DNA of 64,000 bases from a virus (lineage: Duplodnaviria > Caudoviricetes): the IMG/VR virus record IMGVR_UViG_3300025915_000017, positions 953-64,952 of that record. The stretch is one strand, 5' to 3'. Position numbers and translations under genes: made by a program. The notes under the pieces were generated by a model. The model had not been told where the DNA came from and did no database searches. It saw only the letters and a program-made list of their open reading frames with translations. Positions 34,754-39,508 of the stretch are shown piece after piece (within the stretch, counting starts at the first letter, position 1; each line of letters begins with the position of its first letter).

Positions 34754-34871
34754 TGCTTATTTCCCTTCCTTTGTTGACATCGTTTTGATGTCAATTGTTT
34801 CCACCATCAATTTTCTCCTTACCCTTTGCATCCATCACAGCAAGCAAACCGTAATACAAACATACGTTCTA

Positions 34872-34940
34872 GCTCGCGGAGGCAAGGATGCCACCTCACC
34901 GGCAATGAGTAGATTACGAGTTCAAGTCTCGCCGCGAGCG
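34872..34940 (+). ncRNA. Non-canonical tRNA-like cloverleaf (anticodon position GGC)
   Basis: Acceptor GCTCGCG/CGCGAGC 7 bp, D stem GGCA/TGCC with AGGA loop, anticodon arm CCTCA-CCGGCAA-TGAGT, T arm ACGAG-TTCAAGT-CTCGC. Confidence 0.6.
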
Positions 34941-34964
34941 GTGCTTGTAGAGCCATCAAAGTTT

Positions 34965-35185
34965 TGCTATACTGCGATACTGCGATACGGCGTACAAGAT
35001 GGTGAGGCTGCCATCCCCCAGTGGTTGCCTCACTCCCCCAAATCTGCTACACTCACCCTAGCTTGTCTATTTGATCGTTATCCTGCTTCTATGATGCTAA
35101 GACAAGTCTTTGGCCCGGTTCTGTCGGAATGCTACCGGGCCAGCACACACGAGCCTTGAGCCATCGAAAGATGGTTCTTTTTTTG
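34965..35185 (+). ncRNA. Putative small RNA units (promoter-hairpin tandem)
   Basis: TGCTATACT 34965, hairpin 35002-35033, TGCTACACT 35045, hairpin 35111-35142, terminator 35158-35177 plus T run. Confidence 0.4.
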
Positions 35186-35199
35186 TTTTGGAGCAATGT

Positions 35200-35370
35200 A
35201 TGAAGACTTTTCTGCAGCCGCTGATGGCCCTTGCCTTCCTTGGCCTGGTCTTTGCCATTGACACAACAGTTAGTTGCGTCATAGCCAGAAGCGTAGTCCG
35301 TGCCATTTTTTACGGTCTTTCCGCTATCTTCTTGTTGTTGATTGTCGTGATAGCTTTGTTTGGGATTTGA
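35200..35370 (+). CDS. Small two-TM membrane protein (holin-like)
   Basis: 56 aa, almost entirely hydrophobic, directly before the endolysin. Confidence 0.5.
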   Translation: MKTFLQPLMALAFLGLVFAIDTTVSCVIARSVVRAIFYGLSAIFLLLIVVIALFGI

Positions 35371-35371
35371 T

Positions 35372-36337
35372 ATGAAGATCGTAGACGGGTGGATCGATTC
35401 TGCTACAGAGATAGACTATGGCAATAAATCCATGGATCGGCAGGGGTATAAACCTACTCACGTCGTGCTACATGGTACAGCTGGCGGCACAAGCTCTGAA
35501 GCGATTGCCAACTACTTCAAAAGCTCGGACGTGGAGGCCAGCGCACACATCATCATCGGCACCGACGGAGAAGTTACACAAGGAATTAGCATGGATGTGG
35601 CGGCCTGGGCCAATGGCGCAATTGTTCAACCTACCATGCCCTGGCCAGCCAACATCAACCCGAACCTGTACACGATCTCGATAGAGCACTGCAAGCCCTC
35701 AACGGATAATAGCGACCAACTCACGGAGCCACAAAGACAAGCCTCATTCCAGGTGGTGCGGACCATCTGCGACTATTATGGAATAGCCAAACGACGCGGA
35801 GATCTCCAGTCGGGAATTGTCTCTCATGCTGACTTCGACCAGGTAAACAGGGCACGATGCCCCGGTCCCTATCCGTGGGACGAGTTGATAGCTTATTTGC
35901 AGAATGGAGTTTCTATGGGCATTCCTGCCGGATGGAAGGACAATGGCACCATCCTCACTGCCCCCAATGGTCACACCGTCTCATTAGGTTTCAGAGACTA
36001 CGTACTTCATCACGACTGGGACGCTAACAACTGGCCGCTTGAAGAGTCACATGGTCAAACCCCACTTGAGTTGAGCAATCCTGGCTTGGGCGGCGGCACC
36101 CAGCAGGTTTTTAGAACCACAGTCTTAGAATGGACGCCATCAGGGGGTGTATTCGTTGCGTGGGTTGGTCAAGAATTGCTGGCACTCCGTAAGCAATCGC
36201 CACAGAATGCGCCACAGCCACCCATTGTTACTATCAACGTCTCTCAGGCCATCTCATCATTGCAGGCCATGCAAACAGCCTTACAATCGATGGAGACGGC
36301 TATACAATCGGTTATCAAGGATTTGGAACCCAGTTAG
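35372..36337 (+). CDS. Endolysin, N-acetylmuramoyl-L-alanine amidase (Amidase_2)
   Basis: VVLHGTAG, ASAHIII, AWANG, TISIEH and SH...CPG Zn-amidase motifs; C-terminal LGFP-like domain. Confidence 0.9.
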   Translation: MKIVDGWIDSATEIDYGNKSMDRQGYKPTHVVLHGTAGGTSSEAIANYFKSSDVEASAHIIIGTDGEVTQGISMDVAAWANGAIVQPTMPWPANINPNLYTISIEHCKPSTDNSDQLTEPQRQASFQVVRTICDYYGIAKRRGDLQSGIVSHADFDQVNRARCPGPYPWDELIAYLQNGVSMGIPAGWKDNGTILTAPNGHTVSLGFRDYVLHHDWDANNWPLEESHGQTPLELSNPGLGGGTQQVFRTTVLEWTPSGGVFVAWVGQELLALRKQSPQNAPQPPIVTINVSQAISSLQAMQTALQSMETAIQSVIKDLEPS

Positions 36338-37694: not shown

Positions 37695-37985
37695 CTATAA
37701 ACCTCCCTCTATTTCGTCTAACATTGCGAGCAATTCGGATTCTAGTTGTTGATCCTGCTCATAGGCTTCATCTGTTGGGGTATGGACGCCACGATTCATG
37801 CGCCGATCAAGATACGCTCGTTCGCGTTGCATTTTGACCTGCAATCTGGTACGTATCCCAGTGACCCAGATGCGTGCTTCATCTGGTGACATGTCCTTAA
37901 AGGGTTTGCGCGTGGTGAGCGTCCCCTGCGGAGTTGGTTGGTAATAGCTACTTGCTGGCTTCTGTCTTCGGCTCATGGCTCTCAC
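37695..37985 (-). CDS. Hypothetical protein
   Basis: Coupled to the integrase stop. Confidence 0.6.
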   Translation of the reverse strand: MRAMSRRQKPASSYYQPTPQGTLTTRKPFKDMSPDEARIWVTGIRTRLQVKMQRERAYLDRRMNRGVHTPTDEAYEQDQQLESELLAMLDEIEGGL

Positions 37986-38980
37986 TTTCTGCTTAGAAAT
38001 GCCAGTTTATCTACAGCGTTATCATCTAAGTTCAGTTTACGGCGTTGATAATGCTCTGTCTGTCTGGGATCTTTATGACGAGCTGCATACTGTACCTGAG
38101 TAAGCGTGGCGTTGTGCTCCAATGCTAGCGTGATAAATGTGGCTCGAAGACTGTGAGGGGTAAACCTGCGCCCAATCTTCTCGGCATACTTCAACACCAT
38201 GCGCTCTATCCACTTAGGATTAATCTGCTTCTCTGTGGGATGGTCGCCACGGTCAAATCCAACAAACAGCGGAGACTCTAGTGTAAGGTTTTTGCGCTCG
38301 GAGGCATCAAGCCATTCCTGTATGTAACGTTTTACATCAACTGGTAACTTTATCGTGTCCCTGTATCCACCTTTACCAGTGACACGAATGATATAATGCC
38401 CTCTATCCATATCGATGTTACCAACCTTCAATGCTGCACATTCAGCACGCCGCAGGCCAGTGCGCAGAAGAAGAGACATCACAGCATATTCTTGCTTGCC
38501 ATATTTCGTTGAGGTGTCAATGGCTTCCAACAATTGCAGCGCCTCGTTGTCGTCCAGGGCAATATGTGGCGAATCGTCCTCACTGATCTTGAGTGGTTTA
38601 ACACTCTCAGCCGGGTTGTAAGAAATCACCCCCATGCGTCTCTGCACGTCAAGGACCTGACGGGCGACAGTAAACATGCGATTGATGCGTCGTGGCGAGC
38701 GCCTCTTCCCTTCTTCGTTCTCCTCTCCCAGATAGTGCTGATAAGCGATCATATCAGCATAGGTAATATTGGTTGCATGAGTCAGGCCTCGCTCACCTAG
38801 AAAGGCAGCAAAGGTTTTTACGTCTCGCAGATATTCTAATTGTGAACGATCTGACTGGAGACGTTGTAAAACAGTTTCCATCACTTCATCGATGACAGGC
38901 ACGCCAACAGGTACAAGGTAATTGGTCAAGTAATTCTCCCCATAAAAACTTTGTATCTCAAAACGGGAATTTGTGTACAC
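37982..38980 (-). CDS. Tyrosine recombinase (XerC/D-like integrase)
   Basis: Catalytic set TGLRRAE (R), GKGG (K), HSLR, ARHKD (H), HYQR (Y); N-terminal SAM-like domain. Confidence 0.92.
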   Translation of the reverse strand: MYTNSRFEIQSFYGENYLTNYLVPVGVPVIDEVMETVLQRLQSDRSQLEYLRDVKTFAAFLGERGLTHATNITYADMIAYQHYLGEENEEGKRRSPRRINRMFTVARQVLDVQRRMGVISYNPAESVKPLKISEDDSPHIALDDNEALQLLEAIDTSTKYGKQEYAVMSLLLRTGLRRAECAALKVGNIDMDRGHYIIRVTGKGGYRDTIKLPVDVKRYIQEWLDASERKNLTLESPLFVGFDRGDHPTEKQINPKWIERMVLKYAEKIGRRFTPHSLRATFITLALEHNATLTQVQYAARHKDPRQTEHYQRRKLNLDDNAVDKLAFLSRK

Positions 38981-39017: not shown

Positions 39018-39508
39018 TATATCGTTTAGTAGTTATTTTTCCTGTAGAATTCGTAGTTTGATAAAGTGATCCATTAACAAAGCCATTGCGAACAAAAAGA
39101 AAAGCACCAGGCAGATCGATCTTACCCAGTGCTGTGTAGTGATTCTTATGGCTACAAAGAAAAGCGGTTATCTGAACAATGTATTTTTTGTTACCTGCTC
39201 GGCCACAAGATCATGACTCGGCACTTCATAATACTCACTAGCCTTCTGTAATGCCTCTCCCATTGTGTTTGCATTCATATCTCCCAGATACTTACGTGGC
39301 TCGTCGGTATCAGCATTCTCGTAGTAAATCTTGAATGTGTGCATCGGTTTCTCCTTACTTATTTGGACTATTCCACTCTACGAATCGGGCCAGCACGAAT
39401 CCAGCCCCACAACAACTATGATGCTTTAATTAGAGGCTGCGCAGTATCAATGGTGCTAGCCAGTTGCTCACGTTGTTCACGGCTCAGCGTGGCGCCACCT
39501 GGCGGAAA

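Follow-up and report, generated by a model that had tools for sequence, protein, structure and literature searches.

The window, by which we mean the whole 64,000-nucleotide stretch of DNA that was analysed (positions 953-64952 of the 64,952-nt uncultured virus record IMGVR_UViG_3300025915_000017), carries at 34872..34940 on the plus strand a 69-nt non-canonical tRNA gene, and versions of the same gene occupy the same place in related soil-phage contigs. The reading that we favour, with a probability of roughly 55%, is that this is a genuine working phage tRNA of unusual build, with an acceptor/T stack divided 8/4, a miniature D arm and a C33 anticodon loop, which would be charged and would decode. 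The members of its family sit at a single fixed position ahead of the lysis-cassette leader; their carriers are temperate soil phages, and the host of these probably belongs to the class Ktedonobacteria. Analysis of the sequences establishes the fold and shows that it is conserved and covaries, that its place is constant and that the tRNA diverges in the manner of a cassette. Both 8/4 tRNAs and phage tRNAs are already known kinds, the former rare, and what we have not found described is the combination, at a lysis-leader slot in phages of the Ktedonobacteria type, of a class I body with C33, a D loop of 4 nt and GNC anticodons whose switches go together with those of the discriminator.

Against the Rfam tRNA model RF00005, which has a gathering score of 29 bits, the gene scores 40.3 bits from end to end (E=4.7e-5 for the whole 64-kb window), and it is the sole above-threshold Rfam match in the 64 kb. 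A first-pass annotation of this DNA had described the cloverleaf and proposed that it be scored with tRNA-finding programs and examined for covariation in relatives. The covariance-model score speaks for a tRNA, 40.3 bits against a cut-off of 29; ARAGORN, on the other hand, calls no tRNA in the 64-kb window and so misses the gene. For the isolated 69-mer both the minimum free energy (MFE) and the centroid structures are the cloverleaf (-27 kcal/mol, z=-2.8), with 1 of 200 shuffled 69-mers folding equally well, and R1, a covariance model built in this analysis for the phage tRNA family, gives it 92 bits. The fold is more than a chance one, since it recurs with compensatory changes at the same locus of related phage contigs.

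The elements listed in the first-pass annotation, namely the D stem with its AGGA loop, the anticodon loop CCGGCAA, a 5-nt variable region, the T loop TTCAAGT and a total length of 69 nt, are all present, and the sequence indeed encodes no CCA at the 3' end. It is the acceptor stem that needs revision. The helix, given as 7 bp, exists, but in the MFE fold it is 8 bp long once G8:C65 is counted (5' strand 34872..34879, paired with 34932-34939; G8 is 34879 and C65 is 34932). Likewise, G8 and the failure of A49 to pair with C65, which had been counted as two defects, are both present but amount to one feature, the G8:C65 pair. Because G8 pairs with C65, the acceptor stem has 8 bp and the T stem 4 bp ("8/4"), which add up to the 12-bp stack of ordinary tRNAs, and the original observation is confirmed in this refined form. 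A single linker nucleotide, A9 (34880), separates the acceptor stem from the miniature D arm (34881..34892), with a 4-bp stem and a 4-nt loop AGGA that retains GG; this arm is conserved in types A-D of the family (see below), pair 13:22 of its stem being often open. The anticodon arm (34894..34910), in which C27 and U43 are unpaired, exposes the loop C32 C33 G34 G35 C36 A37 A38 at 34899-34905, with the anticodon GGC at 34901-34903. A49 (34916) is unpaired, and the T arm (34917..34931), drawn from the MFE fold and covariation, consists of a 4-bp stem and the canonical 7-nt loop; the discriminator, at 34940, is G (G73). The variable region is 5 nt here and 5-6 nt across the family.

Using the conserved leader, holin and endolysin as anchors, we fetched related contigs and found five further versions of the tRNA at the same place. 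Next to the type A allele of the window stands type A2 (contig L020), which has the same anticodon loop and discriminator G, differs by one substitution in the variable loop and also reaches 40.3 bits on RF00005. Type B (L021, L023 and L024, 5'-truncated, and also runs X1, X2 and X7) has the loop CCGACAA, anticodon GAC and discriminator A. Types C (L027; 35 bits on Rfam, called tRNA-Val(GAC) by ARAGORN) and D (L033:719-786; 78.5 bits on R1) likewise combine GAC with discriminator A, and the more distant type E (L032:1632-1703; 40 bits) has GUC with U33 and discriminator G. Types A-D have in common G8, the one-nucleotide linker, a 12-nt D arm with GG, C32-C33, A37-A38 and a TTCRANT T loop. The conserved core nucleotides U8 and U33 are absent from these four types, their places being taken by G8 (paired to C65) and C33. 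The elements of the elbow are kept: the D-loop GG (AGGA or GGGA), T54-T55-C56, A58, G53-C61 and the T loop TTCRANT. The slot may also be filled differently or be empty. The sister phage L026 has a canonical tRNA-Pro(UGG) there (53 bits), its region 1270-1640 running from a strong consensus promoter through a hairpin of ~80 nt, the tRNA-Pro(UGG), a second promoter-like site and a terminator to the holin, which neatly illustrates how the slot is generally laid out, and the tRNA is absent in L002/L022 and L031, which retain leader or holin. The public runs in which close relatives occur come from soil and rhizosphere metagenomes. No near-identical match turned up in the phage collection, the closest cultured phages being distant protein matches only. 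IMG/VR had 0 matches to a 21-mer from the D arm and likewise to a degenerate pattern for the D arm and anticodon loop, and scans of it with endolysin, leader and holin gave two relatives only, both without the tRNA. One metagenome match, L019, was set aside as a chance hit within a coding region. In L032 (111 kb) we also observed, at ~1425-1535, upstream of the type E gene, a further tRNA-like stretch, called by neither ARAGORN nor R1, in which the T arm is canonical (GGGTTCGAATCCC) but a long insert or additional arm is present.

Covariation was examined in a model-based alignment of six distinct sequences over 20 core stem pairs. Standard pairs fill 96.6% of the pair cells, and double-sided compensating changes, the covariation that the first-pass annotation had suggested looking for, occur in 9 of the 20 pairs (3:70, 4:69, 5:68, 7:66, 11:24, 28:42, 29:41, 50:64 and 52:62), whereas 53:61 is an invariant G-C. 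None of 500 shuffles matched the observed pairing and covariation, and when partners were slid as a control, pairing fell to 30-47%. Since this alignment was fitted to the model, it leans toward structure; a plain MAFFT alignment of four sequences gives the same picture, with 7 covarying pairs. The 8/4 geometry itself is seen in all the sequences, 8:65 pairing in 6 of 6, while the canonical alternative 49:65 could pair in 1 of 6, type E only. In the window allele all 20 core pairs are intact and the D stem is better paired than in the other types. Judged by these alignments, we are dealing with a structured RNA family under selection that has nearly all the hallmarks of tRNA, rather than with a chance fold.

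Across the family the anticodon varies only at position 35, giving GAC, GUC or GGC, and the discriminator follows it: GAC is accompanied by A73 in three types (B, C and D), GUC by G73 in type E, and GGC by G73 in the window. A35, C36 and A73 are identity elements of ValRS, and G34, U35, C36 and G73 are those of AspRS, while a tRNA-Ala is recognised by its G3:U70 pair (and A73). The acceptor helix of the window allele has U3-A70 and zero G:U pairs, and its discriminator is G rather than A. As it lacks G3:U70, an absence already pointed out in the first-pass annotation, it is no normal tRNA-Ala, and the doubt expressed there about a working tRNA-Ala was justified; by its sequence, the combination GGC/G73/U3-A70 fits no standard synthetase identity set. 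The shifting of the discriminator with the anticodon, together with the tRNA-Pro in the slot of L026, favours a real, chargeable tRNA. Phage codon usage revealed no special need for GCC/GCU or GUC/GUU.

The tRNA has a different history from its surroundings. In the endolysin gene the window and type B phages share 97% DNA identity, with 5 amino-acid differences, and over endolysin and holin 17 of 178 four-fold degenerate sites differ (~10%), compared with 21 of 66 positions of the tRNA (32%; Fisher p=9e-5 vs silent sites). The divergent block ends one base past the discriminator, and on its 5' side the first listed difference of contig X1 lies at tRNA position 3. Similarly, the type B and D tRNAs are 82% identical, while the endolysins of their phages are only ~63% identical (protein). 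Since the history of the tRNA disagrees with that of its flanks, the simplest reading is that it was exchanged as a cassette by recombination in the regions on either side of it, the conserved 5' leader and the promoter region. With so few sequences, such exchange is inseparable from diversifying selection. When the window is compared with L020, the allele is nearly unchanged between diverged flanks: the tRNAs are identical at 68 of 69 nt and the flanks differ by ~4-6%, one difference where ~3 would be expected, which is not significant. That phages ~97% identical in the endolysin gene should differ in the anticodon is odd if the tRNA merely supplies codons. A diversity-generating retroelement was considered as the source of variation and rejected, the substitutions not being adenine-specific.

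Turning to cellular tRNAs, no match of R1 in the 151 Chloroflexota and 151 Ktedonobacteria-class genomes exceeded 49 bits, so that the family was not found in the genomes searched; the top matches there (49 bits or less) are Thr and Glu tRNAs of canonical build, which have U8 and U33 and whose D loops are full. In Thermosporothrix hazakensis the best match is a second, non-canonical chromosomal tRNA-Asp(GUC) on the minus strand (L060 1501-1573, which is G152:C18:2558-2630), adjoining a tRNA-His among housekeeping genes of a genome that also has a normal tRNA-Asp. Its 8:65 pair is A8-U65, a one-nucleotide linker leads to a short D arm, the T stem has 4 bp, the discriminator is G73 and the anticodon loop is CUGUCGA with U33; the gene recurs in four more related genomes (L154-L157) at 83-89% identity with compensated acceptor changes. 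With its purine-8/pyrimidine-65 pair it is like the phage family and closely resembles type E; unlike the family, it is chromosomal and has U33, its G49 could pair with U65, so that a 7/5 reading is possible, and it and its relatives score 38-44 bits on R1 against 78-93 for phage alleles. By sequence it is the nearest cellular relative that we found. T. hazakensis also has normal tRNA-Val(GAC), tRNA-Ala(GGC) and tRNA-Asp(GUC) genes with different anticodon loops, and the tRNA-Ala(GGC) genes of both this genome (G152) and another of the class Ktedonobacteria, G156, are canonical. The phage loops CCGGCAA and CCGACAA stand against cellular AUGGCAU and UUGACAU, differing at 32, 33 and 38 from these two genomes, of which the true host may be neither.

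Several observations bear on the host. The named homologues of the endolysin come from Chloroflexi MAGs, Ktedonobacteraceae and Thermosporothrix, and G156 contains prophages whose portal genes are 62-64% identical to that of the window, pointing to a host that is probably in the class Ktedonobacteria (Chloroflexota); these related prophages of G156 have no tRNA at their lysis loci. A tyrosine integrase gene (37982..38980, minus strand; PHROG phrog_1, 3.5e-42) lies ~3 kb from the tRNA, from which we take the phage to be temperate. Upstream of the integrase gene a 37-nt AT-rich stretch (39032-39068) is 89% identical to a site in G156 and may be an arm site of the integrase or a regulatory site. 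The window also contains an IS-type transposase gene inside the phage genome (57533-58819, minus strand; PHROG phrog_5749, 4.5e-124). Its nearest genomic relatives, in Bifidobacterium and Coriobacteriaceae, share 34% identity, and it was therefore rejected as a tracer of the host, a best match of 34% being uninformative.

Among known systems, the closest in geometry are the 8/4 tRNAs of Mukai et al. (2017, Nucleic Acids Res, PMC5389517), which include tRNA-Ser and tRNA-His of phage clusters, selC*-type tRNA-Cys and long-armed allo-tRNAs; irregular tRNA polycistrons were seen in soil metatranscriptomes, and some of the 8/4 tRNAs were active in E. coli while others were charged yet unused in translation (PMC5389517). 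The likeness, compared by description, lies in the 12-bp acceptor/T stack split 8+4 rather than 7+5, in the occurrence in phages and soil samples, in being missed by standard finders and in an anticodon that may disagree with the identity of the body. Those cases, however, are Ser, His, Cys, Sec or allo-tRNAs with a long variable arm, whereas in the phage family the variable region measures 5-6 nt and the D loop 4 nt, position 33 is C33 and the anticodon is GAC, GGC or GUC; the window tRNA, with a short variable region in place of a long arm or Ser-type body, has no allo-tRNA features, and in the family the tRNA stands alone at the lysis-cassette slot, unlike the tRNA clusters of the Mukai phage cases. 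In compactness the parallels are tRNA-Pyl and mammalian mitochondrial tRNA-Ser(UCN) (reviewed in PMC7609411), which share the single nucleotide between acceptor and D stems and the very small D loop; the tRNA-Pyl of D. hafniense even has G8, as does the window tRNA. They differ in that their anticodon stem has 6 bp, their variable loop 3 nt and their stack is 7/5 where that of the window tRNA is 8/4, and tRNA-Pyl is without the GG and T-Psi-C, of which the window tRNA retains GG and TTC. Finally, there are phage tRNAs for which an escape from the anticodon nucleases of the host has been proposed or shown: those whose anticodon loops are altered, where it is a proposal (van den Berg et al. 2023, PMC10264068), T5 tRNA-Lys against PARIS (PMC11464382) and tRNAs against retron effectors (PMC11555353). 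The family resembles nuclease-escaping phage tRNAs in having an anticodon loop unlike that of cellular tRNAs with the same anticodon and in its rapid turnover between phages, and it is unlike them in that the whole body is non-canonical, beyond the loop, and in being known from sequence alone.

The gene at 34872-34940 is one that standard annotation overlooks or mislabels, and the comparisons show that 8/4 tRNAs with a short variable arm (class I), a 4-nt D loop and C33 exist as a family under selection, carried by phages of a soil phylum that has been little studied. The family offers natural test cases for how far translation depends on the tRNA core (U8, U33, D-loop size), for the joint change of anticodon and discriminator at a switch of tRNA identity, and for whether phages trade in tRNA cassettes under pressure from tRNA-targeting defences.

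The tRNA gene lies immediately ahead of the lysis region. Directly upstream of it is a conserved stretch of ~45 nt (34826..34871, plus strand) that aligns with L020, L027 and L033 and is likely a 5' leader or a piece of a promoter; a sigma-70 scan of the window found no clear promoter upstream of the tRNA, and the sequence upstream of 34825 differs between the window and L020. Beginning 5 nt past the tRNA, and heading the lysis leader with no terminator between, is an extended -10 type promoter-like site read from the sequence (34945..34973, plus strand; a TTGTAG-like -35, 17 nt, TG-n-TATACT), which is also present in L002, L021, L023, L024 and L032 and may function as a promoter. It is followed by a conserved non-coding leader RNA (34990..35185, plus strand), conserved in L002/L022, L021, L023, L024, L026, L027 and L032 (counterparts at L002 3770-3975, L026 1478-1630, L027 484-790 and L032 1704-1910) and closed by a predicted intrinsic terminator (35158-35185, plus strand). 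Then come, both on the plus strand, a holin-like gene for a 56-aa membrane protein without family match (35200..35370) and an Amidase_2 endolysin gene (35372..36337; Pfam PF01510, 1.2e-20, and PHROG endolysin families). Upstream of the tRNA are two small minus-strand ORFs without family match. A long ORF that overlaps the tRNA (34785-35159) was rejected as coding because close relatives have 1-nt and 8-nt indels inside it. Pfam and PHROG searches of 40 window ORFs revealed no synthetase, CCA-adding enzyme, RNA ligase or tRNA nuclease.

For a working tRNA one may picture the following course. The tRNA would be transcribed with the short conserved 5' leader and, as no terminator intervenes, transcription would continue into the lysis leader. 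The tRNA would then be excised by RNase P together with a 3' nuclease, and CCA would be added. Once charged, it would be used on the ribosome during infection, where it could supplement a host tRNA or stand in for one that is scarce or attacked. A weak hint of expression comes from X7, a rhizosphere metatranscriptome, in which a contig of 301 nt, extending to the terminator, contains the leader preceded by 66 nt of the tRNA of type B, with a depth of 17 compared with 2-9 for contigs over the lysis genes; such contigs show no RNA ends, and the library may hold DNA. Uncovered stretches and contig ends in the run data were left out of the evidence. Several features nonetheless count against a working tRNA: types A-D have C33 for the near-universal U33, no U8 for the U8-A14 contact and a D loop of 4 nt, the window allele is rejected by ARAGORN and fits no synthetase identity set, and a promoter upstream was not found.

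Alternatively, the RNA may be tRNA-shaped without decoding, either as a decoy for a host defence that cuts or senses tRNAs, or as a structured 5' module of the lysis-leader transcript at which cutting by RNase P/RNase Z determines the ends or the stability of that transcript. We regard this as a serious rival, though a considerably less probable one than a working tRNA. It would account for the conservation of C32-C33 in four diverged alleles, for the "orphan" identity of the window allele, for a tRNA that abuts the leader promoter with no terminator between, and for the RNA-library contig in which a sister allele is joined to the leader. A tRNA far more divergent than its flanks and exchanged between phages is also what one would expect of an arms-race gene, and irregular 8/4 tRNAs that are charged but unused in translation have been described (PMC5389517). 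Against it stands the discriminator, which follows the anticodon as the synthetase rules predict. The leader, moreover, does not need this tRNA, since an ordinary tRNA-Pro sits in the L026 slot and L002/L022 and L031 keep the leader without a tRNA. The T loop and D-loop GG required for the L-shape are kept as well, although a mimic would need both too.

It is unlikely, though less so than the explanations taken up below, that the family as a whole is functional and only the GGC/G73 allele of the window has recently been disabled and is heading to decay. This allele differs from the GAC/A73 majority at 35 and 73, the positions that matter most for ValRS, its C27-U43 is unpaired, ARAGORN fails on it, and its promoter may have been lost, given that the sequence upstream of 34825 is not that of L020. 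On the other side, all 20 core pairs are intact, with a D stem better paired than in other types, and what sets the allele apart from types B-D is a large number of compensated changes rather than random mutations. Its near identity in two contigs with diverged flanks (1 difference in 69 vs ~3 expected, not significant) also counts against decay, and G73, being common to the GUC type, may be ancestral rather than a lesion.

A bolder reading, and a still more unlikely one, would make the GGC/G73 allele a deliberately mis-matched adaptor, derived from a lineage of bodies with Asp/Val signals and reading the alanine codons GCC/GCU. If this were true, a non-alanine residue would be inserted during infection, i.e. 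phage-driven mistranslation, or else the RNA, remaining uncharged, would occupy the pocket with which a tRNA nuclease or sensor of the host recognises anticodons. What phages exchange as an arms-race cassette would then be anticodon position 35 together with the discriminator and the sequence of the helix.

A link to integration is very improbable, whether the gene is an attP that holds a host tRNA gene in copy or serves as the replacement in tRNA-dependent lysogeny, where a host tRNA gene of the same type is destroyed by the integrase and temperate actinobacteriophages can depend on a tRNA of their own (Guerrero-Bustamante and Hatfull 2024, PMC10865867). The tyrosine integrase 3 kb away, the single tRNA of the phage, relatives with different tRNA types or none, and the mechanism described for actinobacteriophages (PMC10865867) would all agree with it. 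Yet the exact 20-nt 3' end of the tRNA has 0 matches in 185,579 species genomes, and there is thus no sign of a host tRNA copy or attB; nor did the surroundings of the integrase, searched as DNA against 169 Ktedonobacteria-class genomes, give a match overlapping a tRNA, the host species not being among the collections. Besides, an attP needs a mere 3' piece of a tRNA, not a full covarying cloverleaf unlike host tRNAs, lysis genes lie between tRNA and integrase, and the replacement-tRNA version is in any case a sub-case of the working tRNA. The decayed tRNA suggested in the first-pass annotation does not hold up as the principal interpretation, and the family as such is no decayed relic, as 20 of 20 core pairs are intact, 9 of 20 covary and the allele is 68/69 nt identical in a second contig.

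Some minor features of the region may be added. The intergenic region between the divergent genes contains, close to and upstream of the start of a minus-strand 81-aa ORF, a 21-nt perfect palindrome (34773-34793, of the TTGACATCG-TTT-CGATGTCAA type), which may be an operator, with a second TTGACAT copy nearby at ~34749. The leader (~200 nt) is conserved across phages whose endolysins are only 59-73% identical and contains promoter-like motifs of the TGCTA type, which are repeated, as well as a GAGCC-n-GAGCC motif that the phages share ahead of the terminator; compared with Rfam, it reaches no family above threshold, the best being BjrC174 with 26.6 bits vs 45. Just after the -10 of the leader promoter, at 34971-34986, the window has an 8-nt unit in tandem duplicate, present as a single copy in L021, L023, L024, L020 and the contigs of X1, X2 and X7; the duplication would lengthen the 5' end of the leader RNA. 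At 35166-35169 the terminator loop GAAA is replaced by its reverse complement TTTC in L023, L024 and run X2 with the stem unchanged, which looks like an inversion of the hairpin loop.
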